DNA of 43,492 nucleotides, from the IMG/VR virus record IMGVR_UViG_3300033487_000326, positions 1-43,492 of that record; one strand, given 5' to 3'. Below the pieces are notes generated by a model that saw only the letters and a list, made by a program, of their open reading frames with translations, was not told where the DNA came from and searched no databases. Source of the stretch: a virus. Lineage: Duplodnaviria > Caudoviricetes. The position numbers and the translations under genes were made by a program. Positions 1,494 through 39,030 of this stretch are shown here, one piece after another (position 1 is the first letter of the stretch; every line of letters starts with the position of its first letter).

Positions 1494-1838
1494 TTACCAC
1501 AATTTATAAGATAAGCTTACGTAGAATTTATTTCTAGATTCTTGAGCGGTGAAGTCCTCTTGCCACTCAAAACCAGGAGCAACTGTCCAGGCTTTTCCAA
1601 CTCCAACTTGTAATTCGTTTTTTAATACAAGCCAATGAGTGCTGTCTTTGTCTTCAAAGGGACGAGATCCATATCCAGTCCAAGAATTTAAAGCAACGTT
1701 TCTCATAAGAGGTTGCCAAACGGCTAACCCAACTTGAGGACGAACATTGCCGTCAGTGACATTTGTTTGAAGTTGAAGTTTTCCACTTCCAAAAGCGCTA
1801 GTTGAGAACAGGAGCATCGCTAACATTAGTTTTTTCAT
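1494..1838 (-). CDS. Small exported beta-rich protein, probable outer-membrane beta-barrel subunit
   Basis: Start reassigned to ATG 1838 (SD AAGGGGG). Signal peptide MKKLMLAMLLFSTSAFG, alternating beta-strand pattern, and C-terminal FYVSLSYKLW with a terminal aromatic (beta-signal-like). Confidence 0.6.
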   Translation of the reverse strand: MKKLMLAMLLFSTSAFGSGKLQLQTNVTDGNVRPQVGLAVWQPLMRNVALNSWTGYGSRPFEDKDSTHWLVLKNELQVGVGKAWTVAPGFEWQEDFTAQESRNKFYVSLSYKLW

Positions 1839-3135
1839 TATTTCCCCCTTTAGGAACATCTAAAAGCGTATAATCGTGAAACATCCACGTCATAGCCTTG
1901 TCATGCATTTCCATTGAAGTATTTCTTATAAAATCCAAAGCATCAAGCGATAACTTCACATATTTGGCCCTAAGAGAGAGGTCCTTTTCTTTAAAGGCTT
2001 TCTGTCTATAGGCTTGAGCAATGGCCATAATAGTTTCTGGACTATTTGGCTTTTTCTTTAATGCCAACTGAAGATATTTAATGGCTTCATCGTTTTTTTC
2101 ATATCTAGACATAATGTCACCGGCAAACATAAGGGCATCTGCAGAATTCGGACAAGCTTCAACCATAGACTTTATAAAAGTGTCTAGCTCGGCTCTGTTA
2201 TTATGAAAATGGTTTCTATTAATTTCATAGTGATGAATCCATGCAGAGACGCAGTTTCGATATAGTTCGATTGCCTTTTTAGACTCATGTTGTTGTAAGT
2301 GGATCCAGACATCCTTTGCTTTGCGCATAAACTCGACGCCATCGGCAACGCTCCATTGTGGTTTTGCCATGCTTGAGTCACCCTTTTTAAGAATATAGGT
2401 GTTTCCGTAGACCTCATCGTTTTTATAAACAACCTCTAATCCGGCTCTATGAATGATCCACTCGAGATGCTTTTCGCTCCACGCATTGATATGATCTGGA
2501 TGCCAATAATATTCTAAATCAAAACTATTAACTCCGTCGCAATGCATTGCTTTAAACCACACGGGAGCAGATAAATAAAACACACCGTCATCTTTTAAAC
2601 AGTCGGCATATTTTTTAAGCATTATGTCTGGATCGAGTTGGTGCTCAAGAACGTGATAAGAAGCAATAAGATCATACTTTTTAGTAAAATCAAAATCTTC
2701 CTCTAGTCGAATACCATACTCAAAAAAAGCAACTTTTATATAAGTACTTGTTAATTCTGTTCCGTTAATATCAGCTTGTGGAAATTTTTGTTTACAGAAG
2801 TTTAAAAACATCCCAATAGCCGACCCGACTTCACCAATAACCGGACGATCAATTCCTTGTTCTTTCCATCCATTAAACAATGGAGTTAAGAAAAAATCAT
2901 GATACTGAACTTTTCTCTCTCCTGTTTTTACAGACTTCGCGTCCGGAACGGACCTGTAGTTTTTTCGGTAGTACTCTTTTATTTCTTCTTCTGTTTTATA
3001 TTTTTCTGGATAAGAAACAAAGGAGCATGTCTGGCACATGTGTGTTCCTTCTGGTTTGATTCTATATTGATCAACATTTTTCCAGTTACCTACTGTTTCG
3101 CATACTGGGCATCTGAAGCTTTTAACTTTACTCAT
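1798..3135 (-). CDS. Class I SAM-dependent methyltransferase with N-terminal Zn site and C-terminal TPR-like repeats
   Basis: CPVC...CQTC, EVGSAIG motif I, YDLIASYHVLEH, LKDDGVFYLSAP, HPDHI (sugar-methyltransferase-like). Helical TPR-like C-terminus (ALMFAGDIM...AIKYLQLALKKKPNS). Confidence 0.8.
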   Translation of the reverse strand: MSKVKSFRCPVCETVGNWKNVDQYRIKPEGTHMCQTCSFVSYPEKYKTEEEIKEYYRKNYRSVPDAKSVKTGERKVQYHDFFLTPLFNGWKEQGIDRPVIGEVGSAIGMFLNFCKQKFPQADINGTELTSTYIKVAFFEYGIRLEEDFDFTKKYDLIASYHVLEHQLDPDIMLKKYADCLKDDGVFYLSAPVWFKAMHCDGVNSFDLEYYWHPDHINAWSEKHLEWIIHRAGLEVVYKNDEVYGNTYILKKGDSSMAKPQWSVADGVEFMRKAKDVWIHLQQHESKKAIELYRNCVSAWIHHYEINRNHFHNNRAELDTFIKSMVEACPNSADALMFAGDIMSRYEKNDEAIKYLQLALKKKPNSPETIMAIAQAYRQKAFKEKDLSLRAKYVKLSLDALDFIRNTSMEMHDKAMTWMFHDYTLLDVPKGGNNEKTNVSDAPVLN

Positions 3136-3947
3136 ATAATTCCCCTTATTTTATTTGTCTTATCTATAATTGATTTTAAAGTTTCAGGTGTCACGGCTTG
3201 ATCAGCGTCGCTCATGGATTTTTCTGGCTCTTCATGGCATTCGACAAGGAGACCATCTGCTCCGACGGCAACACCTGATAGCGCAATGCTCTCCACCAGA
3301 TCACGACGACCAGTCGAATGAGACGCGTCCCATATGACAGGAACTCTGCAAATTGAATTAATAGAAGCCACAACATGAGGAGTGGGAGTCCAACGAACGT
3401 CATTGTGATAAGTAGAAGAACCTCGCTCAATAATTGAAACATCTTTTACTCCTCCGGTTAGTAAATGCTCCACTGATCCAAGACACTCGTCAACCGTAGA
3501 GCCAGGATGTCTCTTTAAAAAAACAGGCTTTCCCCACTTTCCAAGTGTTCTTAATAGAGGGTAATGCTGCATCGCACGCGCCCCTACCTGAAATACGTCA
3601 CAATATTTAGCTAAAATTTCTAGCTGATCTGGCTGATATGAAATGACCTCAATAATGTTTTTTAAACCATTAGCCTTTGCAGCTTCGCTATATGACTTAA
3701 TTAGATGTTCATCTACATACCCATATTTAATAGTTCTGTTTGGATAAGTACCCGCACGATATACGCCACCACGTAGATAATTTGCTCCTGCTTCTTTAAC
3801 AATTTTAGCAATTCGATTTACTTGGTATTCAGACTCTACAGAACAGCTTCCACTAATTATTTTGAATTCATCATTAGGCGGTACATATGCTTTGACGTAA
3901 TCGTATGAAGGATTCGGACCCCAAATTCTTTTGTTTGAAAAGTCCAT
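3132..3947 (-). CDS. DAHP synthase I-beta / KDO8P synthase family enzyme (PEP-aldose aldolase) with atypical substrate loop
   Basis: GSCSVES, LRGG, QVGARAMQ, KPVFLKR, IERG, DASHSTG, GADGLLVECH, SDADQ. Confidence 0.88.
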   Translation of the reverse strand: MDFSNKRIWGPNPSYDYVKAYVPPNDEFKIISGSCSVESEYQVNRIAKIVKEAGANYLRGGVYRAGTYPNRTIKYGYVDEHLIKSYSEAAKANGLKNIIEVISYQPDQLEILAKYCDVFQVGARAMQHYPLLRTLGKWGKPVFLKRHPGSTVDECLGSVEHLLTGGVKDVSIIERGSSTYHNDVRWTPTPHVVASINSICRVPVIWDASHSTGRRDLVESIALSGVAVGADGLLVECHEEPEKSMSDADQAVTPETLKSIIDKTNKIRGII

Positions 3948-4342
3948 TAGAAATTACTCTTCCTAAGAAACATCTCAAATTCCCTATCCCTAAGTTGTTT
4001 CGCTTTTTTAGCATCCATCATATAGTCCATGCGTTTTCCTTTTGCATATTTAGGAATCACAATATCCCCTGGCATTGGATACTTTTGCCTAAGTATCCAT
4101 CTCATGCATCTTTCGAGATTTCTAATTCGTTTAATTACCCACAAATCTAATTTCTCAGAACCAAGTCCTTTTGAATTTATATCTGCAAGTCCGGCCTGAA
4201 GGCCATACCTCCATGCAGATAATTTCTCAACGCTACCTTTTGTGGCAGCCGTCTCGAGACAAGAGCGCCAGTGATCCTCAGTAAGTGTTGAATACATGGC
4301 TAAAACATCAAGAGCTGCGTACTTGCGTTTCCCCTGATTCAC
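3947..4342 (-). CDS. Hypothetical protein
   Basis: Coupled ORF within the operon; GTG 4342 is preceded by a GGGGG SD (the track starts it at 4354). Confidence 0.6.
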   Translation of the reverse strand: MNQGKRKYAALDVLAMYSTLTEDHWRSCLETAATKGSVEKLSAWRYGLQAGLADINSKGLGSEKLDLWVIKRIRNLERCMRWILRQKYPMPGDIVIPKYAKGKRMDYMMDAKKAKQLRDREFEMFLRKSNF

Positions 4343-5648
4343 TTGTTCCCCCAAGTATTTTGTTTTTTATTTTCTCTCGTTCTTTAATATTAGTTTTAGA
4401 CATTGAACTAGGAGTTTGTCGATAAACAAAAGTTGGTTTATTAAGATACCCAATCCTTACCTGTTCCTTGGCTCTTACCCATAAATCCAGACCTTCATAA
4501 TTTCTAAGTTTATCGGTGAACTTAATATGGTTTAGAGCGGAAGTTCTATATATAGTTCCGCCAGCATGATGATTTTCTTTTCCAAGCTGAATATTTTTTC
4601 GACCAACGCCGGCATAACAATTTGGATATACTGCGTCTAGAGATCTGGAATCAATCTCGTTAACTAAGTCAGAGACAGCAGTTTTGTTGGTAAAATAATC
4701 ATCAGCATCAAGACGAATTATATACTCTCCCTTTGCAAGGTTTAGCGCCCTATTAGAGCTTGATGAAAGGCCAACGTTAGATATGTTTTTATAATACTTT
4801 GTGTTTTTATAAGTCTGACAAAATTTTGACGCATGAAGTATTGTCTTATCTTGAGAGGCGTCATCAATAATCAAATACTCATAATTTTTAAAATTCTCCT
4901 GCATAGCAACAGATCCCATGGCTTCTTCAATCCATTTTTCTGCGTTATATGCGCATGTGTAGATCGTCACGTCGGGGAGTTTGTTTATGTTTTTAATCCA
5001 AGGATGCTCTTCGTAAAATGAGAATACATCGTCTATGGAACAATCAGGCCCAAGACTTGTAAACAACAAATCCATCATTTGAACATCTTCTGGATAGTCC
5101 ACCAAAAGCCTTAAGTCACAATCAAGCATCATCTCATAATTTAATTTATTTTCTGTTGTTGCCTTAATTGCATAGGATATGTGCTCAATGTTTTTACCAC
5201 CATATCTTTGAGCGGCCTTTTCTATGACATCAAAAGACATTATCTCAAATCCAGTCCCTGGAATAAAATCACTGGAATAAAGATAATCGAGACTCTTTCT
5301 TTTAAAGACGTCTAATAGAGAATTTAAAAGTACGTCAGAGACGAATATTTTATCGTGAGTAACTCTGATAATCGTGTCTATGTTGTTTTGCTTCGCGCAC
5401 GCGTGAATTCTACCAAGAGGATTGCTGTCGAATCCTGTAGATATGAAAACCTTGTTAGGATACTTCTCCATAAGAAACATGTAGTCGTTAACTTCTGGTG
5501 CAGGAACAGCCAAATATAGAGGTATATCGCTTTTTATAAGTCTCCTTACTAAGTGCTCTATGTGATAAATTTCTTGATACTTAATAAAGCATTTTCCAGG
5601 CACACGAGAAGAGTGTTTTCTTGAACAAAGAATTATAGCAGTACTCAT
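4308..5648 (-). CDS. Cytidylyltransferase (SpsF/NeuA/KdsB-like) fused to GT2 glycosyltransferase
   Basis: N-terminal CSRKHSSRVPGK, IIRVTHD, RLLVDYPED. C-terminal VTIYTCAYNAEKWI, IIDDAS, RLDADD. ATG 5648 overlaps the upstream stop (ATGA). Confidence 0.85.
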   Translation of the reverse strand: MSTAIILCSRKHSSRVPGKCFIKYQEIYHIEHLVRRLIKSDIPLYLAVPAPEVNDYMFLMEKYPNKVFISTGFDSNPLGRIHACAKQNNIDTIIRVTHDKIFVSDVLLNSLLDVFKRKSLDYLYSSDFIPGTGFEIMSFDVIEKAAQRYGGKNIEHISYAIKATTENKLNYEMMLDCDLRLLVDYPEDVQMMDLLFTSLGPDCSIDDVFSFYEEHPWIKNINKLPDVTIYTCAYNAEKWIEEAMGSVAMQENFKNYEYLIIDDASQDKTILHASKFCQTYKNTKYYKNISNVGLSSSSNRALNLAKGEYIIRLDADDYFTNKTAVSDLVNEIDSRSLDAVYPNCYAGVGRKNIQLGKENHHAGGTIYRTSALNHIKFTDKLRNYEGLDLWVRAKEQVRIGYLNKPTFVYRQTPSSMSKTNIKEREKIKNKILGGTSESGETQVRSS

Positions 5649-6595
5649 GAATCCCAAACTTTCTTAAAATTTTTATATGATTCAAAACTAGAACAGTTTC
5701 GACACGGATCTAAATTAAATGCGGACTTATCTTTTAAAGATTTTCTTATAGACTTGGCTTTTTCTGAATTCCAGATTTCTCTCAAACCCTGTTTATTACA
5801 ATCCCCTATTACAAGACGTGACCCAATGTCAGGACAGCAAACGTGGACTTTGCCGTCCCAATCGACCATAAGTCTTGCGTGGGCTTGGACGCATGTTTGT
5901 CTATTTTTTGCATCTCGCTTTTCAACAACAGTTTCTGATAGGTCTTTATTTGTTCTTCCTTCAACGACATCTCTGACTGAGACAACTGCCGAAGGGAATC
6001 TAGATTTAATTTCATGTTCTAAATCCTCATCTTTATTTAGTTGAGTTCGAACGGACTGAACGACAAATACATTATCGCGACCAGGGTAATTATAATACTT
6101 AGACATGTTTGCAAGTGTCTTTTCATAGTTAGAACCTTTTCTTTGTTTCTCAAAAATATCCTTACGAAAAGAATCAAAACTTACTTTGACTTTTGTTTGG
6201 TTGCAGAGCCCTCGAAAGATAGATTCTTTTTCGTAAGGAAAATTAAAATTAGAATTAGTAACTCGATCAATGAATGTAGATCCATGTGCTTCTTTTTTGG
6301 AAATACTGGTTATGTATTCAAATTCAGGATGCATCGTGGATTCCCCACGGTAGTTAAACTTAACAGAATGAACCCCTAAATCAGCGGCTTCGAATATAAT
6401 CTTTTGCGCTAGCAGTGTTTTCATGTACCCCTTTTTAAAAGGGAGTGTTGATCTGTCTGAGTGGTAACAATAGCCACAAGCATTAGTACAATACGAAGAG
6501 AGCTCGAGTGAAACATCTACTGGTTTAGAGAGATTTAAATATGGCGCGTAGTTATATTTAAAACGATATATCTGATAATTTAATTTTTGAAACAT
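5645..6595 (-). CDS. Radical SAM enzyme with SPASM/twitch domain
   Basis: CTNACGYC (CxxxCxxC), NYRGES; C-terminal CVQ...DGKVHVCC...IGD...EIWNS...CRNC. Confidence 0.9.
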   Translation of the reverse strand: MFQKLNYQIYRFKYNYAPYLNLSKPVDVSLELSSYCTNACGYCYHSDRSTLPFKKGYMKTLLAQKIIFEAADLGVHSVKFNYRGESTMHPEFEYITSISKKEAHGSTFIDRVTNSNFNFPYEKESIFRGLCNQTKVKVSFDSFRKDIFEKQRKGSNYEKTLANMSKYYNYPGRDNVFVVQSVRTQLNKDEDLEHEIKSRFPSAVVSVRDVVEGRTNKDLSETVVEKRDAKNRQTCVQAHARLMVDWDGKVHVCCPDIGSRLVIGDCNKQGLREIWNSEKAKSIRKSLKDKSAFNLDPCRNCSSFESYKNFKKVWDS

Positions 6596-20574: not shown

Positions 20575-23500
20575 TTAGTTTGTGCTTCTGCCTACTTCTA
20601 CCCAGTCCGTTCCGTTGGAAATAAAAGTAATTGTGTCATATTGAGTTGGTGTCCAGTTACCGGCCATGCGATGGTTTCCGCCAGTGCCCTGTGCAGAATC
20701 ATCAATCAATTCTCCTGCGTTGGTACCAGTCCACTCAATCCTTAATAGATGTCCTGCAACCGTGCTTTGTGCAAGAATAAACGTTCTATTAGTCGCCGTG
20801 GCATTATCAGATGATAAAGAAATATATGAGATGTTTGACGTCGTAACGGTAGTGTTGTCAGCCGTCAAAGATACAGTTGATTTCCCGTATGCCACAGCTC
20901 CGTTCACATCACAGTCTACAGAAGGCGCGGTCGTTTTTCCGAATGAGAATTTACCAGAATGGGCACTTTGCGCACTTCCAGATCCATAAATAAACCAGCG
21001 TTTTGTGTCTGAAGTCATGGCGCTATGAACGCCGTAGGTTGCCGTACTTGCAACAGTCAGGTTAGGAATTGATAACCCATAAATATTGTCAATTGTTCCG
21101 CCGGATGTAACTGGGTTATTGGCTTTGAAATGATATAAGTTGGTTATCGTGGCGTTGGTGAAATCTGTTACTAAAAATTCAGAGATGTATGTCACATAAC
21201 CCAAAACGTTATCAATTGTAATTGATGTGGCGGAAGCACCCTTGGTAATCCTGGGAGCGCTATGATATCCGCCCACGTTTGTAATCCTTGGAGTGATACT
21301 TGCCGCCGTCGGATTTACAGTAATGTTTGAGTTAAATCCATATTGCTGTGAGTTTGTATCGGAAGTAGATCCTGTTGGACGAAGAACTGTTTTTGAGAGG
21401 AATGTAGCGTTACTAGATAATACTTGTGCCACGCTATATTCAATAACAATGTCGGAATAAAAACCCCTAGTGTAACTGACACCAATGGCTGTTGTAAAAG
21501 TTCCGGTTAGTTTAATCCAGTCCATACCAGCAACACCACCAGATCCAGTTGCAGTGCAAGTTGCGGTTAAAACAATTGGATCGTTAATATTCACACGACC
21601 AGTATTGGTATCTGTTAGAGTTCCGGTATTCGCTCTAATGGTTAATGAAGAAGAAGTGGCAGTTCCACCAAAAATAGTCCCTGAGAATTCAGCGTTTTTA
21701 TTACAATAAACTTTAATAGCCTGAGTTGGTGTAACACTCGCATCAGCCGTGACCAGTAAAGAAAGGGCTCCAGGCATTGAGGTTGTAGATACCGTTCCTA
21801 AATTACATACTGAAGCTATTACTTGGGCCGCTTTTAAGTATCCAACCGTGGTCGTACCTGAGTATGCATGAAACCCAATTATTCCAATAGAATCATTGGC
21901 TAGAACTGCAGTTGGTGTCCCATGTGTTCCGCGAGATTTAGATAAAACTGTATTTGCAGCAACGGTAGTCGAATCTATGTGAATATGATTGTTAATCCCA
22001 ATCAAATCACTCGTCATGTCTACAGTTAATTTGGCCTGTACTGTTATGCTATTTACTACTAATGAAGAACTCTGTTGGCCTATTGATAGTGCCGATGTTG
22101 AGTTATCCCAATAAAACTCAGTCGCAGTCCCAAGTATTTTAGATCCATTAGAGAATAAAACAGCACCAGACGCGTGAGCGCACGTTAGACTACTTGCATC
22201 AATACCAGCAGGAATTACTGAAAATGAAAAAGCCCCTGTCGTGTCATTATAGTCAGGAGTTATCGTGGCCGTAGTCGTAAGCATGGTTCCTATAGCATCC
22301 TGTGCAGCCTCGTTAAAATCTGTAACTTGGCTTGCGGTGATAGCGATCGCACCAGTGCTAAAATGAATGGAGCTATTCGCAATATGGGTATCTATCTGAG
22401 TATGGGTGTTAGTCCCAGCTCCGGTTAAACTTTGATGGTCAATACCAGCAGGAATAACCGCAAAAGAAAATGCACCAGTCGTATCGTTGTAGTTTGGAGT
22501 TATAGAAGATGTTGCCGTTAATACAGTGCCAATTGCATCTTGCGCAGCTTCATTAAAGTCAGAGACCTGTGATGCCGTGATAGAGATCGCAGATTGTAAA
22601 AAGTGAATACCTGTACTTGCAATGTGGGCATCAATTTGGGTGTGCGTATTAGTTCCTGCGCCCGTTAAGCTTTGATGATCTATACCTGCCGGAATTACTG
22701 ATAAAGAAAATGAGTTGGCGGTATCATCATAAGACACAGAAATAGAAGAAGTAGCTGTTACAGCATTAAATACTGCGTCCTGAGCGGCCTCTGTGAAATT
22801 TGATACTTGAGAAGCGGTAATAGAAATCGCACCTTGAGTAAAATGAATTGTGGCGTCTGCAATGTGAGTATCTATCTGAGCATGAGTATTTGTACCCGCA
22901 CCAGTCAATGATTGATGGTTAATACCAGCGGCCAAAACAGCGAGAGAGAATGAGTTTGCAGTGTCGTCATATGTGGGAACAATAGAAGATGTTGCAGTAA
23001 CTGCGTTAAATACAGCATCCTGAGCCGCTTCACTAAAGTCTGTAACTTGGGAAGCAGTAATTGCGATAGCACCGGTACTAAAGTGAATAGATGTATTGGC
23101 TATGTGAGTGTCAATCTGTGTATGAGTATTGGTTCCGGCCCCTGTGAGAGATTGGTGGTCTATGCCAGCAGGAATGACTGAAAATGAAAATGCACCGGTA
23201 GTATCATTGTACGATGGAGTTATCGTAGCGGTAGCTGTAAGGACATTTCCAACAGCATCTTGGGCGGCTTCGTTAAAGTCTGATACTTGAGATGCTGTAA
23301 TTGCAATCGCTCCGGTGCTGAAGTGAATAGAGCTATTTGCTATATGTGTATCAATAGCCGCGTGATCGTTTGTCCCCGCGCCAGTGAGAGATTGGTGATT
23401 TATTCCAGATGCATCAAAAGAAATTGTATATGTATTAGCAGAATCATCATAAGTTCCTGTGGCCCCACCACTTGTAGTGATGGCTGTAAATACTGCGTCC

Positions 23501-24075
23501 TGTGCTCTTTCATTCGTGAAATATAAATTAGTTCCTTCTGGAAGATCTGTGGTAGATGAAATTCCTCCACCACCACCAATTATTGTAGTATCACCACCAC
23601 CGCCGCTTCCACTAATAAAAGAATAATAGAATTTCCATTTATCTTTTTCTTTATAGAATACTTCCTTGGCTTCGTTAAATACCCAGTCACCCTCTTTACC
23701 TAATTCTTTTTTAGGATATCCAGGCTTTTCTACGTAATGTACAGCCCCTGAATCTTTTCCATCTTTACCACTTCGACCGTCTTTTCCATCCTTACCGTCT
23801 TTTCCTGACGGTCCTTGTGGGCCTGACGGACCAGTGTCTCCTTTATCGCCCTTTTCGCCTTTATCTCCGCGTTCACCTTTATCTCCCTTGTCACCCTTTG
23901 GGCCAGGAAGAGAAAGTCCACGCGGACCTCTCGGGCCAACTATGGATTTTCCAGGAGGGCCTGGAGGACCTTGTTTTCCCTCAGGACCTTGAATCGGAAC
24001 TTGTTCGATAATTATTTGATCTTCTCCTGAAGAGACCTTTTCGATCTTTCCAGTCTTTGGATTATACCTTTGCAT
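20575..24075 (-). CDS. Large fibre protein with collagen-like and 80-aa His-containing repeats
   Basis: Gly-X-Y tract, DLPEGTNLYFTNERAQDA motif, tandem repeats, Thr/Ser-rich beta C-terminus. Confidence 0.8.
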   Translation of the reverse strand: MQRYNPKTGKIEKVSSGEDQIIIEQVPIQGPEGKQGPPGPPGKSIVGPRGPRGLSLPGPKGDKGDKGERGDKGEKGDKGDTGPSGPQGPSGKDGKDGKDGRSGKDGKDSGAVHYVEKPGYPKKELGKEGDWVFNEAKEVFYKEKDKWKFYYSFISGSGGGGDTTIIGGGGGISSTTDLPEGTNLYFTNERAQDAVFTAITTSGGATGTYDDSANTYTISFDASGINHQSLTGAGTNDHAAIDTHIANSSIHFSTGAIAITASQVSDFNEAAQDAVGNVLTATATITPSYNDTTGAFSFSVIPAGIDHQSLTGAGTNTHTQIDTHIANTSIHFSTGAIAITASQVTDFSEAAQDAVFNAVTATSSIVPTYDDTANSFSLAVLAAGINHQSLTGAGTNTHAQIDTHIADATIHFTQGAISITASQVSNFTEAAQDAVFNAVTATSSISVSYDDTANSFSLSVIPAGIDHQSLTGAGTNTHTQIDAHIASTGIHFLQSAISITASQVSDFNEAAQDAIGTVLTATSSITPNYNDTTGAFSFAVIPAGIDHQSLTGAGTNTHTQIDTHIANSSIHFSTGAIAITASQVTDFNEAAQDAIGTMLTTTATITPDYNDTTGAFSFSVIPAGIDASSLTCAHASGAVLFSNGSKILGTATEFYWDNSTSALSIGQQSSSLVVNSITVQAKLTVDMTSDLIGINNHIHIDSTTVAANTVLSKSRGTHGTPTAVLANDSIGIIGFHAYSGTTTVGYLKAAQVIASVCNLGTVSTTSMPGALSLLVTADASVTPTQAIKVYCNKNAEFSGTIFGGTATSSSLTIRANTGTLTDTNTGRVNINDPIVLTATCTATGSGGVAGMDWIKLTGTFTTAIGVSYTRGFYSDIVIEYSVAQVLSSNATFLSKTVLRPTGSTSDTNSQQYGFNSNITVNPTAASITPRITNVGGYHSAPRITKGASATSITIDNVLGYVTYISEFLVTDFTNATITNLYHFKANNPVTSGGTIDNIYGLSIPNLTVASTATYGVHSAMTSDTKRWFIYGSGSAQSAHSGKFSFGKTTAPSVDCDVNGAVAYGKSTVSLTADNTTVTTSNISYISLSSDNATATNRTFILAQSTVAGHLLRIEWTGTNAGELIDDSAQGTGGNHRMAGNWTPTQYDTITFISNGTDWVEVGRSTN
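22198..23505 (-). repeat. ~5.4 tandem 240-bp (80-aa) intragenic repeats
   Basis: AQDA recurs six times at exact 240-bp spacing; unit contains GI[ND]HQSLTGAGTNTHxQIDTHIA...IHF...AITASQV.DF.EA. Confidence 0.95.
23750..23990 (-). repeat. Collagen-like Gly-X-Y repeat
   Basis: GPEGKQGPPGPPG...GPKGDKGDKGERGDKGEKGDKGDTGPSGPQGPSGKDGKDG. Confidence 0.9.
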
Positions 24076-26552: not shown

Positions 26553-28043
26553 TTAAGATTTAATTTTTCCCCTTATGTCAGAATATACATCCAACACGCC
26601 TTCTTCAATACACATTTGAAGTGCAATACACGCTGAAATAAACAAATCATCGTGTTTTGTCTCTTCAGCCTCGATCTTTCCTTCATTATTTGTCAACGTT
26701 AAACACTCACCTAAAGTCTGACGATCATTAAGAATTATAGTACCGTTTTCTACGCCTTCTATAAATACATCTATCATCAATGGTCTAGTGACTCGGTCTG
26801 TAGTCCAGCCTAACTTCATTTCTTCTAGTTCTGTTTTCTTATTTTCTTTTCTTGTTCGATAAAGATTTGCATAATTATGGACTTCATCTAGTTTAAGCAA
26901 AACCGCATGGCCGTGATTGTTTCGTTCAACCCCTAAAAGAAGCGGCGGGTAGGCTCTTGAATAAAGATTGGCCATTTCAATTAATACATCGGCAAATTCT
27001 GAAGGCTTAAGATTATTTGCATTAAATGATGCTACCTGTTCTCTGGTACTGACTTTAAATACATGTGCGGCACTATGATCGCCCTCAACCCCTTCGGCAG
27101 GGTCGGAGCCTATTACATATAGTTCGTCTTTTTTCCATTCTTCATAAATTCGTATGCCATTTATTAATTTAATTGGCTTTGGTGCGTTGTCATACATCGG
27201 TTTTATGATCTCTAACCTAAACGGGTTTTGACCTGAGGTTAGAAAACACGTTGCATCATTTTCGCTATATTCCTGGTGGAACATTCCTTTTAGCTCACGT
27301 TGCTTAAATCTGCGAAAAGCAATTTGGTCCATACTTATGTGGACTCCATACTTAGAAAGTCCATATTTCTGTAGACGAACCTCATCTTCAGTAAGATCTG
27401 ATTGTTTTATTTCGTGATTAGAAATTGCATATTCCTCTTGAAAGTACCACGGATAAAATATTTTTTTATAATTTGAATCTTGATCCATGTATGCCTCGTA
27501 AAACTCATTAAGGCCATTAGGAGTGCTTTCTATAGTTATTATGCCGTCGATTGGAACTGATTCTAGAGTTGCAAGAACCCTACTGCGTTCTTTTACAAAC
27601 GCCATTTCAGATATGTGCAACCAATTTACTGTCGACCCCCTGTTTTCTAAGTCACAATATATTCTTGAGTTATTTTTAGGAAAATACATTGCAAACCGGC
27701 TTCCCCCTCCACGATCAAGTTCTGGCTGTAGCTGAGGATGCAAATAATCGTAAGCTCTCTTTGGAATCCTAAATAATTTTTCTAATGCGTCTTGTTCGTG
27801 GGCCAATACCATTGCTGTCTTGTTTTTTCCAAAAAAGACATAATCAGACATTTTCAAAAGCTCATTAGTAGTAATTCCGACCTGACGAGCCTTTAAAATA
27901 AGTTTTCTTTTTGCTGTTTCTTTGTTTAATAGCCTCTGAATATAGTTCGGTTTAAATTTAGATTTATTGCCAGATTTATCGACTATAAAATATAAATTTT
28001 CAAGACGCCAACTTGGGTCCTTAAACCTCGGATCTATGTTCAC
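26553..28043 (-). CDS. terL: Terminase large subunit
   Basis: LKARQVGITT (Walker A), LHISE (Walker B), IESTPNG, GSDPAEG, VERNNHG, HDDL. Confidence 0.93.
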   Translation of the reverse strand: MNIDPRFKDPSWRLENLYFIVDKSGNKSKFKPNYIQRLLNKETAKRKLILKARQVGITTNELLKMSDYVFFGKNKTAMVLAHEQDALEKLFRIPKRAYDYLHPQLQPELDRGGGSRFAMYFPKNNSRIYCDLENRGSTVNWLHISEMAFVKERSRVLATLESVPIDGIITIESTPNGLNEFYEAYMDQDSNYKKIFYPWYFQEEYAISNHEIKQSDLTEDEVRLQKYGLSKYGVHISMDQIAFRRFKQRELKGMFHQEYSENDATCFLTSGQNPFRLEIIKPMYDNAPKPIKLINGIRIYEEWKKDELYVIGSDPAEGVEGDHSAAHVFKVSTREQVASFNANNLKPSEFADVLIEMANLYSRAYPPLLLGVERNNHGHAVLLKLDEVHNYANLYRTRKENKKTELEEMKLGWTTDRVTRPLMIDVFIEGVENGTIILNDRQTLGECLTLTNNEGKIEAEETKHDDLFISACIALQMCIEEGVLDVYSDIRGKIKS

Positions 28044-28479: not shown

Positions 28480-28871
28480 ATCGAGGCTCTCTGTTTATAT
28501 CTTTCTACAATTAAATCTCTGAGCTCTTTTTGTCGATAAAAATAATTATTAGGTATACCAAGGCATAGTACGTTTGGTTTATTTTTTAATTCTATTTGCG
28601 ACAAAATGTTTAAAACAGTCTCGTAATGACCTTCGTCCATACATACTATTTCATCAGCCCAGCTTAAAAGCACATCGTCTAGTTTTATTAAGGCAAGATC
28701 ATCAGAAGCCCCGGCAGATCTGGTATTAAAATTAAATGGTGGAAGTGATAGTACGTACGCAGCAGTGGGTGATCGAAGTAGTCCAGCCGTACATACACAT
28801 AGTACTTTTTTGTACTCTCCTTGACATGGGTTTTGGACGGTATGAGTCCTGTTCATTTCTTGCATGTTCAT
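28476..28871 (-). CDS. Low-molecular-weight phosphatase-like protein
   Basis: P-loop VLCVCTAGLLRSPTA (CX5R), TRSAG, WADEIVCM. Confidence 0.85.
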   Translation of the reverse strand: MNMQEMNRTHTVQNPCQGEYKKVLCVCTAGLLRSPTAAYVLSLPPFNFNTRSAGASDDLALIKLDDVLLSWADEIVCMDEGHYETVLNILSQIELKNKPNVLCLGIPNNYFYRQKELRDLIVERYKQRASI

Positions 28872-29059
28872 TCTTCGTCCAGCTCCTTCATGTATTTTTC
28901 TATCTCTTCTGGAGTAACGTCCTCAACCCATGCTGCTACTTGGTTGCCGCATTTATCACACGTGTAGTATCTGTATGTTCCGACTCTGTCATGAATTCCG
29001 ATTAGCCAGTCGTCAATTTCTGGAAGTTGCATTTTGCACTTTGAGCACTGAGCACTCAT
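28868..29059 (-). CDS. Small Zn-ribbon protein
   Basis: CSKC...CDKC; ATGA coupling. Confidence 0.65.
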   Translation of the reverse strand: MSAQCSKCKMQLPEIDDWLIGIHDRVGTYRYYTCDKCGNQVAAWVEDVTPEEIEKYMKELDEE

Positions 29060-29439
29060 TTCTTTTCAATCTCCGCCATGATTGCATCGTGAAGCTTATA
29101 AACACCGACCTTTAGATCAGCATCTACTTTATCAGCAACTTTTCCTATAGATCTGGCAAGCATTGGTTCAATCCAAGAGAAATCGCCTTTTTCAATAGCC
29201 TTAGTCATGCATTTGATTACTAAAAGATCAATGGCTGGTTTTCCTGTCTGAGTATACTCAGCCTTAAGTTCATCCAGTGACATGTTTATGTATTTGTAAA
29301 TTGAAAGTTCTAATTCTGATTGTCTATGTTGACGTAGTTCTTTTAATTCTGGAGGCAAAGCACGACTGGACTTCTTTCCAGCCAGTGATGCTTCCTTGCT
29401 TCCTTTCTTGAATTTTCTAACAGGATTAGGGTTAGCCAC
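29056..29439 (-). CDS. Probable terminase small subunit
   Basis: Basic N-terminus (FKKGS...AGKKS), AIEKGD...RSIGK helix pattern, upstream of terL. Confidence 0.6.
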   Translation of the reverse strand: MANPNPVRKFKKGSKEASLAGKKSSRALPPELKELRQHRQSELELSIYKYINMSLDELKAEYTQTGKPAIDLLVIKCMTKAIEKGDFSWIEPMLARSIGKVADKVDADLKVGVYKLHDAIMAEIEKK

Positions 29440-30184
29440 TTTGCGTTATCTTTTCGTTAGTTAAAGTGTTACTTGAAGTATTTTGGAGCGCATCGGTCGG
29501 ACTTTCACCGCCCCCTTCAGTCTGGTAGACTGACGTGCCAGATTCAACACTAGATGCGCGTTTAGGATATGGTTTTCTTAATGGTTCGATCTGTTTTCTG
29601 ATCTCTTTTGTTAGCGGCATTAAATATCTATGCTTGAGTGTTGGCTTTCTTGTTTTTATGCCTGGGTTTTTTTCTATAAATTTCTTTCCTTGTACTCCAT
29701 ATGTTGAGCCAACCGATTTTGGATGGGTCCATTTTCCGTTTATAAGATATTCCAAAGATCCTCCAGGAACTTGAGTTCCTGAGTATATCCAGTTTGTTGC
29801 CTGATATATGCCGCCGTGGTGATTTTGTCTCGGATCTGCAAAAGATATAATCAACTTAAGACCAGGGTTTGATTTTTTTAAAAATGACATTGAAACACTT
29901 AGTATTCTTGAAACTGGTGTATCGTGATTATTAAGAGCTATCCTGGTTAGCTCACATCCTTCATATTGGGTTAGTTTGTATGGTTTTAGGAGGTTTGGAG
30001 AAGCCCCACGAGAAAAGAGGACAACTCCTATAAACTTATCATTTTCCCATACTCCTAGCTTAACTATTTTCCCAACAGGAACGCATTTCGAGTAATGCCA
30101 ATTCTCACAAGCGTATTTAGCTGCTGCATGAGTAGCCCAATCAATTTTTAATTTTGGCTTGGGATTTTTCGAACTCTGTTCCAC
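29432..30184 (-). CDS. mom: Mom-like adenine-modification enzyme (GNAT fold)
   Basis: ENWHYS, FIGVVLF, ELTRIAL, LIISFADPRQNHHGGIYQATNWIYSG, KHRY; GTG start. Confidence 0.82.
   Translation of the reverse strand: MEQSSKNPKPKLKIDWATHAAAKYACENWHYSKCVPVGKIVKLGVWENDKFIGVVLFSRGASPNLLKPYKLTQYEGCELTRIALNNHDTPVSRILSVSMSFLKKSNPGLKLIISFADPRQNHHGGIYQATNWIYSGTQVPGGSLEYLINGKWTHPKSVGSTYGVQGKKFIEKNPGIKTRKPTLKHRYLMPLTKEIRKQIEPLRKPYPKRASSVESGTSVYQTEGGGESPTDALQNTSSNTLTNEKITQSG
29484..29559 (-). tRNA. tRNA-Gly-like element (anticodon ACC, encoded CCA) embedded in the mom-like CDS
   Basis: 76 nt: GCGCATC TA GTGT-TGAATCTG-GCAC G TCAGT-CTACCAG-ACTGA AGGG GGCGG-TGAAAGT-CCGACC GATGCGC T CCA. Confidence 0.8.
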
Positions 30185-30656
30185 AGCTTGGACACTCCAT
30201 ATAGACTAATTGTTTCTGATCTAGTTTTCCCTGTTCGTCCTCTGATCCAGGTTCAAAGTTTAAATTAAAGTCTTTTAATCCTAGCCAGTCCAAATCAAAA
30301 CTAGATCCGTCTAATTCTTCAAGATCAAAGTTAATTCCGGATAGATCTAACTCTGCCCAATTTGCAATAGCGTTATCGCTTTGTAGGAATGCATACTCTT
30401 GGTCTTGGTCCTTAAACTCTTGATAAACGACTGGGACAGTCTCAGCCTTTAACTCTTGTAAGGCTAGTAAGGTGCCATGACCTTTAACTATATTTCCTGA
30501 CAATTTACTAACTACTATTGGAGCTCTGACCCCTTGATAGTCGATTAATTTAGCCAAACGTTTAATTTGATCCGTTGGGTGTTTGTTTCTATTTTTAGGG
30601 TGTGGTTTTAGAGATTTTGGAGATACTAATTCGTCGTATTTACATTGAATGTTCAT
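30141..30656 (-). CDS. ParB/Srx N-terminal-like domain protein
   Basis: LKPHPKNRNKH, PIVV...IVKGHG, VPV, SDN; C-terminal CPSCG. Confidence 0.82.
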   Translation of the reverse strand: MNIQCKYDELVSPKSLKPHPKNRNKHPTDQIKRLAKLIDYQGVRAPIVVSKLSGNIVKGHGTLLALQELKAETVPVVYQEFKDQDQEYAFLQSDNAIANWAELDLSGINFDLEELDGSSFDLDWLGLKDFNLNFEPGSEDEQGKLDQKQLVYMECPSCGTEFEKSQAKIKN

Positions 30657-30714
30657 CTATCCTCCGCTTAACAGGTTTGTGAATTGCGTTAATTCGAATT
30701 GTTTCACACAGGTC

Positions 30715-30800
30715 TTTACAAATCAAATTAGACCTTAGTATAGTTTCTCTGCTGGCGCTGTGGGATTTAGCAAACAAGACCTCATGGCGTCAGCACTTTT
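30715..30800 (+). ncRNA. Candidate small antisense hairpin RNA with its own promoter
   Basis: TTTACA-18 nt-TATAGT (30715-30744), then a 15-bp stem 30750-30764/30781-30795 with four G-U pairs, then CTTTT. Confidence 0.4.
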
Positions 30801-30818
30801 ATGTATATATGCATAAAT

Positions 30819-31055
30819 TTATTGATAAGTCGTAATGAACAGTTTCCCATCTTTGTTCACGATAATGATGGCTTGGTCTTTTTGTAATCGATAAACACTT
30901 TCGACATCTACGATAGCCTGACCACAAGTTGTCTCGTTTGTTATGGCGTTCACAACGCACATAGGGGCGACTACGTAGTCTTTTTTCTTTTCTTCTTTTG
31001 GCTGAGAGGCGCAGCTTAAGAAAAGTGTACTAAAGATAATTAAAGCGTATTTCAT
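30819..31055 (-). CDS. Lipoprotein
   Basis: MKYALIIFSTLFLSC lipobox; start reassigned to 31055. Confidence 0.65.
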   Translation of the reverse strand: MKYALIIFSTLFLSCASQPKEEKKKDYVVAPMCVVNAITNETTCGQAIVDVESVYRLQKDQAIIIVNKDGKLFITTYQ

Positions 31056-38544: not shown

Positions 38545-39030
38545 ATGAGCGAGTGGGGGGATAAGATAATTTTAGACGCTTGTTGTGGCGGACGAATGTT
38601 TTGGTTTAATAAAAAACACCCAAAAACTCTTTACTGCGATGTTCGTAAAGAGAGTTTCACAGCTTGCGACGGCCGAAAGATTAAAATTGAACCGGATATA
38701 ATAGTGGACTATAAAAAAATGCCTTTTAAAGATAACAGTTTCCACATGGTTGTATTCGATCCGCCGCATCTTAAGGGCGCAGGTGAAAACGGATGGATGG
38801 CTCAAAAGTATGGACGACTCGGATCCGACTGGAAAAACGAAATCAAACTTGGATTTGATGAGTGCATGAGGGTTTTAAAGCCGAACGGTTCATTAATATT
38901 TAAGTGGAATGAGCACTCTATAAAAGTTTCTGAACTAATTTCTGTTATCGGATCCGAACCGTTATTTGGTCATAGAACGCTTCAGTCGTCGAAAACAATA
39001 TGGATGGCTTTTTTAAAGGACGCCCCATGA
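38545..39030 (+). CDS. Small SAM-dependent (probable DNA amino-) methyltransferase
   Basis: ILDACCGGRMFWF (motif I), VVFDPPH (motif IV), RVLKPNG. Confidence 0.85.
   Translation: MSEWGDKIILDACCGGRMFWFNKKHPKTLYCDVRKESFTACDGRKIKIEPDIIVDYKKMPFKDNSFHMVVFDPPHLKGAGENGWMAQKYGRLGSDWKNEIKLGFDECMRVLKPNGSLIFKWNEHSIKVSELISVIGSEPLFGHRTLQSSKTIWMAFLKDAP

Follow-up and report, generated by a model that had tools for sequence, protein, structure and literature searches.

Why should a phage gene for a DNA-modifying enzyme run on past the point at which the enzyme ends, and why should the extra stretch fold like a glycine tRNA? The question is raised by one locus in 43,492 nucleotides of viral DNA (hereafter the window), a 43.5-kb tailed-phage record that is 97% complete, whose minus strand, by Pfam and PHROG scans of the open reading frames, carries genes for portal, terminase, capsid and tail proteins. 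The features concerned are the following.

29432..30184, minus strand: mom open reading frame (250 aa), with the RNA at its 3' end
29561..30184, minus strand: Mom core (aa 1-208), ending in YPK (aa 206-208) as Mu Mom does
29432..29560, minus strand: read-through tail of mom, 42 codons, crossing the RNA
29484..29559, minus strand: tRNA-Gly-like RNA of 76 nt, recognised by its fold and by covariation in homologues
29495..29512, minus strand: T arm of the RNA, a five-pair stem interrupted between 51:63 and 50:64 by a bulged A (29497)
30141..30656, minus strand: gene with a ParB-N domain, overlapping the mom start
29056..29439, minus strand: 127-aa gene, coupled to the mom stop
26553..28043, minus strand: terminase large subunit (PHROG 2, E 1.1e-21)

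The protein itself is a close fit to the Mom family. Residues 12-208 match Pfam Mom PF25680 (E 2.6e-48; 164.8 bits against a cut-off of 27.1), and the core is also matched by PHROG 1384 and by PDB 8bv8 (E 2.4e-9). BLASTP against Mu Mom, which ends at YPK241, gave 28% identity (E 4e-15), and the alignment shows all eight of the Mu residues H58, Y59, R111, S124, D149, R151, Y159 and W181 to be conserved in the window protein; these residues, R111, S124, D149 and R151 among them, are needed for Mu Mom activity according to the sections of PMC13219725 consulted. Since Mu Mom ends at YPK and the window core keeps both YPK and the key residues, the 42-codon tail is extra to the enzyme, and the RNA begins two bases past the YPK codons, where Mu Mom stops. 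In the same sections of PMC13219725, Mu Mom transfers glycine from Gly-tRNA-Gly to adenine N6 in double-stranded DNA, accepting all three E. coli isoacceptors and rejecting Gly-tRNA-Ala, so that the first-pass annotation of this DNA, which had named Gly-tRNA as the Mom donor, was right for the Mu enzyme. Going by family membership, the window Mom is predicted to form 6-NcmdA on DNA from Gly-tRNA.

The mom module stands at the head of the late packaging genes, as placed by the terminase large subunit. Upstream, the product of the gene at 30141..30656 scores below the curated cut-off for Pfam ParB_N (E 1.8e-5) and matches a ParB-like PHROG (E 2e-24). Downstream, the 127-aa product of 29056..29439 has no Pfam or PHROG match and falls only into unnamed clusters of the Atlas; by its position it is likely the terminase small subunit, the gene at this place being a terminase subunit in 38 of 53 relatives. 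A scan of the minus strand for promoters and terminators near the RNA returned nothing, with totals at chance level, and no integrase was named among the subset of window ORFs scanned. Elsewhere in the genome, aldolase-like, glycosyltransferase and weak radical-SAM matches follow the endolysin gene at 1798-6595 (minus strand), possibly forming a sugar-modification module; a DNA methyltransferase gene (PHROG 954) lies at 38545-39030 on the plus strand, and the gene directly after that for the portal (20575-24075, minus strand) encodes 1166 aa, among them internal repeats and a collagen-like stretch.

The cloverleaf at 29559-29484 proved to be as exact as first described, and every feature listed for it was recovered in sequence and fold. 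The acceptor stem (29559-29553 with 29494-29488) has seven Watson-Crick pairs, beginning with G1:C72, C2:G71 and G3:C70, and is followed by U73 at 29487 and an encoded CCA at 29486-29484; the D stem is formed by 29550-29547 and 29538-29535, and the anticodon stem (29533-29529 with 29521-29517) presents U33 and the anticodon ACC at 29526-29524. A 4-nt variable loop plus one bulged base accounts for the length of 76 nt. The translation features reported as degenerate are indeed so, for the D and T loops both depart from the canonical form, with no G18G19 and no TTC in the 7-nt T loop, and the T stem is bulged. Position 32 is able to pair with 38, and 33 with 37, which in the minimum-free-energy (MFE) structure shrinks the anticodon loop to 3 nt. 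The cloverleaf is the MFE fold both alone (-28.8 kcal/mol) and within a 301-nt context. The 76-nt RNA alone reached a z of only -1.93, with 8 of 200 shuffles folding as well; folding energy by itself is thus weak evidence, homologues were needed, and the case rests on covariation. Checking the locus with tRNA finders had been suggested as well, and here the fold upheld the cloverleaf while the programs made no call: ARAGORN found no tRNA in the window or in any of the 80 closest mom loci, and an Rfam search of 28500-31000 that admitted E values up to 10 matched no tRNA family. Our model R1, of which the window RNA is a training member, scored it at 88 bits as the sole match in the genome.

In a search that started from the protein, with a query that included most of the tail and thereby biased the ranking, the RNA was present in all 81 loci (the best 80 viral loci plus the window), which represent 56 distinct sequences. 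When only the core was used as query, an RNA match lay at the YPK in 76 of the best 80 viral Mom relatives, a set in which some contigs are shared with the training set of the model. Among the 56 distinct sequences, which are kin and hence do not count as independent events, all seven acceptor pairs form in 55; pairs 1-3 are G:C, C:G and G:C in all 56, U73 is likewise invariant and CCA is encoded in 54, while all four Watson-Crick types are seen at pairs 5-7 and three of them at pair 4. Two size classes can be distinguished, one of 75-76 nt (19/56) and one of 67-70 nt (37/56), the latter having a short linker and a longer anticodon helix in place of the D arm. In the alignment of the 76-nt class (18 sequences), 98.9% of cells are paired, both partners have changed at 17 of 21 pairs and all four arms covary; its covariation of 0.703 compares with 0.212 for shuffled alignments, none of 500 shuffles reached it, and slid controls were 32-46% paired. 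The corresponding alignment of the 69-nt class (19 sequences) has 98.1% of cells paired and 15 of 22 pairs changing on both sides; the two alignments leave aside one 75-nt sequence, one 76-nt sequence of duplicate type and those of 67, 68 and 70 nt. The T stem keeps its bulged A and all five pairs in each of the 56 distinct protein-first homologues, with compensatory changes at four of the five. A conserved, covarying cloverleaf near other mom genes (76/80 in the core-only search; 17/21 pairs), on which the first-pass annotation had staked its claim, is therefore present, and so is the GGx.PTxxLQ peptide that it had predicted as the coding shadow of the T arm. We could also reject a chance cloverleaf, as a structural descriptor matched 188 of 295 loci against 3 matches in three shuffles of 1.04 Mb. 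The comparisons argue for selection on the RNA structure; the RNA is real and widespread, and in the window it is confirmed as a genuine feature despite being missed by standard tRNA finders.

If the RNA is what is conserved, the open frame across it has to be accounted for. Between them, the homologues translate the tail in each of the three registers, and its amino acids are hence not what is selected; a role for the tail as protein was ruled out, given the three frames, its position outside the Pfam model and its being cut short in several loci. The register is nonetheless kept open where Mom uses it: for the three registers in turn, the one used by Mom was free of stops in 14/14, 12/16 and 74/77 sequences, compared with 23/93, 45/91 and 14/30 when the same register was unused, and the stop fell within -20..+10 nt of the next start in 79/96 loci as against 16/72 controls (most commonly at -4, -1 and -8), although these counts come from related sequences and overstate independence. 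In the window, the end of mom, stop included, and the beginning of the following gene share 8 nt. Coupling of translation into the packaging genes is, in our reading, the better account of the open frame.

What the RNA has kept points to glycine. The determinants of bacterial GlyRS given in the available part of PMC10464925 are G1:C72, C2:G71, C35, C36 and U73, and this bacterial tRNA-Gly identity set is complete in the window copy; the set named in the first-pass annotation agrees with it except for G3:C70, which is invariant in our sequences and absent from the list in that part of the paper. CC at positions 35-36 is found in 111 of 130 perfect anticodon hairpins. In the same source, L. plantarum GlyRS is reported to glycylate a tRNA-Gly without D arm to a very low level and to favour purine 4:pyrimidine 69 (PMC10464925, part seen); the RNA differs on the latter point, with C4:G69 in the window and pyrimidine 4:purine 69 in 54/56 sequences; host-type tRNA-Gly in L299 and L302 likewise has C4:G69.

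What it has lost concerns decoding. The T loop has TTC in 1/56 sequences and G55 in 52/56, TTC being kept in 27 of 108 RNA-first copies among the matches listed, and G18G19 occurs in 3/70. U33 is present in 60 of 139 copies, positions 32 and 38 could pair in 126 of them, and base 34, the wobble position, is A in 64, U in 60, C in 12 and G in 3 of the 139. According to the sections consulted of PMC7826273, how tightly EF-Tu binds the tRNA body depends almost entirely on the first three pairs of the T stem, and it is within these three pairs that the bulged A lies (56/56), the pairs themselves being strong G:C; our literature search found no paper on such a T-stem bulge as an EF-Tu antideterminant. 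Mom-linked copies with no bulge and a normal T loop do exist, in the phages Sonny, Sicarius2, Appa and Phonegingi and in L226 and L300. Loss of U8 was also considered as a mark of non-translation and was dropped, host-type tRNA-Gly in L299, L302, L303 and L305 having A8 too.

An RNA-only pattern, consisting of the T arm and the 3' acceptor strand, returned at least 120 loci, with about 1400 stretches estimated in IMG/VR. The 5' acceptor half, which the pattern leaves unspecified, was present in 121 of 122 of the matches listed. Among the listed matches with long flanks, 72 of 80 RNA-first loci have a Mom gene, and all 16 that were tested are Pfam Mom; in these listed loci the RNA overlaps the 3' end of mom in 57 (51 fully, 6 partially), lies on its 5' side in 14 and is intergenic in 1, and at the 5' end it shares the Mom frame in 12. 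As for the eight listed loci with no adjoining Mom gene, one has Mom 1.3 kb off behind another gene, two have Mom fragments at the contig edge whose scores fall short of the cut-off, in three the sequence runs out within 74 nt upstream, one adjoins another GNAT gene and one lacks both Mom and the 5' half. The RNA is on the opposite strand in the Microbacterium phages Appa and Phonegingi, and in L119, L170 and L206 it occurs as D-armless tandem copies, head-to-tail and 1-6 nt apart, with the Mom frame of L170 running through both. The RNA thus behaves as a free-standing unit, found 3', 5', intergenic, on the opposite strand and in tandem. In 151 genomes of the Dehalococcoides class, R1 gave 14 matches, of which 8 are bulged and all at the 5' end of mom, and 6 are unbulged, one of these lying after mom and four resembling host tRNA-Gly.

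Several loci deserve mention in their own right. One genome (G068; L304, L307, L308) holds three mom genes in 91 kb, each headed by a bulged copy, and two of the three copies have the anticodon GCC. In one contig the RNA (L103:558-632) is on the opposite strand right after a GNAT gene outside PF25680 (L103:35-556), and other GNAT clades may use the RNA. A glycosyltransferase gene sits between RNA and mom in L117 (G006), possibly an extended modification cluster. One contig matches the window at 29455-29581 only, that is, at YPK and the RNA, with 4 differences in 127 nt and unlike flanks, and in L021, where Mom is 58% identical, the RNA at 3093-3168 closely resembles that of the window; such RNAs may pass from one mom gene to another.

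The RNA is nevertheless optional, Mu and close Mom relatives from Bacillales and Enterobacterales being without it. A core search of genomes found 15 of 70 loci matching R1 at E < 1e-4, with ARAGORN adding one and 54 having no RNA; Moms 50-58% identical from Paenibacillus, Bacillus, Serratia, Yersinia and Enterococcus lack it and stop at or just past YPK. The whole Mu genome gave no RNA match, and Mu-like loci, many of which are cut at the stop, gave 0 of 45. Among cultured-phage loci fetched by a Mom match, 5 of 22 carry a version of the RNA: an unannotated tRNA-Gly(UCC)-like RNA without bulge or CCA overlaps the mom stop in the Arthrobacter phages Sonny (L082:1780-1853) and Sicarius2 (L285:1583-1656), the copies of Appa and Phonegingi are annotated as tRNA-Gly, and so is the bulged copy of Salinibacter phage B2_17. 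BLASTN of the RNA against cultured phages returned mainly ordinary tRNAs, plus a 70-bit copy in Verrucomicrobia phage P8625 (L282:1503-1578) that has mismatches in three stems, in a record with no Mom. This copy lies within a 65-aa ORF between a ParB-methyltransferase gene and packaging genes, as if the methyltransferase had replaced the Mom core. In L156 (1201-1281), the 3' half of the RNA comes immediately after a ParB gene, with terminase next, and mom together with the 5' half of the RNA appears to have been deleted. A gene of phage SWEP2 (L284) annotated as endolysin matches the Mom core (E 3e-7) and may be misannotated. On a FastTree Mom tree of 207 rows, from which 12 rows were left out (short, with little flank, Mu included, or annotated as endolysin), the RNA occurs in several distant clades with 16 changes of presence; as the sampling is mixed, the tree gives neither a prevalence nor a direction of gain or loss.

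Taken together, the intact glycine identity set, the shedding of decoding features and the varied arrangements in which the RNA accompanies mom are best accounted for by an RNA that is supplied as a donor. We consider it probable, by comparison of sequences, that the RNA is a dedicated glycyl donor for Mom, excised from the late mRNA. RNase P together with trimming at the 3' end would set it free, host glycyl-tRNA synthetase would charge it with glycine, and the bulge between 50:64 and 51:63 would weaken EF-Tu binding, such that the charged RNA stays out of translation and Mom would use it as its own glycine donor for adenine modification. The tail peptide would have no function of its own and would serve to bring ribosomes as far as the gene for terminase. 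Cleavage of a transcript at G1 would deprive the mom message of its stop codon, and translation and release would for that reason compete. The idea of a private glycyl carrier had been put forward in the first-pass annotation; its core is well supported on comparative grounds, through the covariation, the identity set and the tie to mom, while ribosome exclusion and feedback control are inferences. Several observations count against a donor role, namely that the RNA is optional, that Mu Mom accepts all isoacceptors, that unbulged and near-canonical forms exist, that the GlyRS of L. plantarum disfavours D-armless (37/56) and pyrimidine 4:purine 69 (54/56) forms, and that the P8625 copy occurs without Mom. 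More tentatively, and somewhat less likely than not, the RNA could stand for a family of ribosome-excluded aminoacyl carriers that serve DNA modification in many phages and genomic islands, each embedded in the gene of its own enzyme, in which the T-stem bulge keeps EF-Tu off, the D-armless form is charged in bacteria, and ribosome traffic towards terminase decides between enzyme and packaging protein on the one hand and donor RNA on the other.

It is unlikely, though worth weighing, that the RNA is instead a charged tRNA-Gly that enlarges the Gly-tRNA pool late in infection for ribosomes and Mom alike, possibly as a nuclease-resistant replacement. There is a continuum up to near-canonical forms that ARAGORN calls tRNA-Gly, the copies of B2_17, Appa and Phonegingi are annotated as such, and degenerate D and T loops do not keep tRNA-Pyl or mitochondrial tRNAs from decoding. 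The lack of isoacceptor preference in Mu Mom (PMC13219725, sections consulted) would fit a shared pool as well. Set against this are the bulge in 56/56 and the missing D arm in 37/56 sequences, the low count of U33 (60/139) and the pairable 32-38 (126/139), as well as an anticodon whose first base is free and mostly A or U; these changes recur and are not purged.

We regard it as rather improbable that the RNA never carries glycine and remains in the mRNA as a cis-acting tRNA mimic, controlling the expression of mom or terminase by binding Mom, GlyRS or RNase P. Such a mimic would be in keeping with the overlap of coding sequence at the 3' end in 57/80 and the shared Mom frame at the 5' end in 12 more of the loci among the matches listed, with a frame that stays open and is linked to the gene that follows, and with the minus strand near the RNA having yielded no promoter or terminator; yet the RNA is also found on the opposite strand, 1.3 kb off behind another gene and in tandem, its position relative to mom varies, and the U73 and CCA end that is relevant to a free 3' end is kept. 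That the RNA is a relic, for example of a tRNA gene taken from the host or of an attachment site, or else a decoy to host nucleases acting on tRNA, in either case unlinked to Mom chemistry, is very unlikely, for although decayed or orphan copies without Mom occur in P8625 and L156 and the distribution on the Mom tree is patchy (16 changes among 207 rows), compensatory change is seen in all arms, no integrase was named among the subset of window ORFs scanned, the only identity is glycine, and 72/80 of the RNA-first loci among the matches listed have a Mom gene.

The reading of the RNA as a glycyl donor for Mom can be set beside systems already described. The window enzyme belongs to the same family as Mu Mom, with the key residues kept (PMC13219725; PF25680; PDB 8bv8), but Mu has no such RNA and scavenges host Gly-tRNA-Gly (PMC13219725, sections consulted); the terms tRNA-like, cloverleaf and mimic do not occur in the main text of that paper (Silva et al. 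2026). Closer at hand, the RNA likely works like the non-proteinogenic tRNA-Gly of S. aureus, judged by analogy: NP1-NP3 share with it glycine identity, what may be a comparable alteration of the T stem at the EF-Tu site, and a GNAT-fold transferase as partner (PMC7826273, in the part consulted). They differ in being chromosomal, in having weak but paired T-stem bases and in serving as donors for FmhB/Fem cell-wall synthesis (PMC7826273, same part), whereas the RNA described here has a bulged T stem, frequently lacks the D arm, overlaps its partner gene, which in phages is mom, and has DNA as its putative acceptor. The irregular tRNAs of Mukai et al. 2017 (allo-tRNA, selC* tRNA-Cys; PMC5389517) are also non-canonical cloverleaves of bacteria and phages, and the available part of that paper includes some with a T-stem bulge and some that are charged but not translated; there, however, the acceptor branches are 8/4 or 9/3 and the bulge is 51a, as opposed to the 7/5 branch, 3'-strand bulge and glycine identity of the window RNA.

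The nearest precedent is a pseudo-tRNA described by McMurdie et al. 2011, a locus of 76 bp that resembles tRNA-Gly and falls within the first 150 bp of a mom homologue, found in 16 Dehalococcoides ssrA islands and a marine fosmid with the anticodon DCC (PMC3146451, in the part seen). It has in common with the window RNA a 76-nt tRNA-Gly-like fold, an NCC anticodon and a place inside a ParB-linked mom, but it lies at the mom 5' end in an ssrA island, whereas the window RNA replaces the stop at the mom 3' end in a phage late operon. The bulged R1 matches 5' of mom in the Dehalococcoides class suggest that the two are probably the same RNA class, and the embedded RNA is to that extent partly in print already (PMC3146451). 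The sections of PMC3146451 available propose no function for the mom-embedded pseudo-tRNA and describe no T-stem bulge, D-armless form or spread across phages, and a literature search with subscription journals outside its coverage found no paper in which RNA linked to mom is proposed to donate glycine. Within the same coverage there was no published account of the read-through form at the 3' end, of the bulge signature or the D-armless class, of coupling to terminase or of a donor role.

Because cultured phages carry versions of the RNA, its role is testable now. Whatever that role, a large RNA family has been missed by standard tRNA finders, one strict pattern alone accounting for the roughly 1400 stretches estimated in IMG/VR. 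If the donor reading is true, the RNA would offer a natural EF-Tu antideterminant together with a D-armless bacterial tRNA form; it would link the pseudo-tRNA seen inside mom in 2011 (PMC3146451, part seen) to the use of Gly-tRNA-Gly by Mom reported in 2026 (PMC13219725, sections consulted), and these phages would be making an aminoacyl carrier of their own, dedicated to DNA modification.
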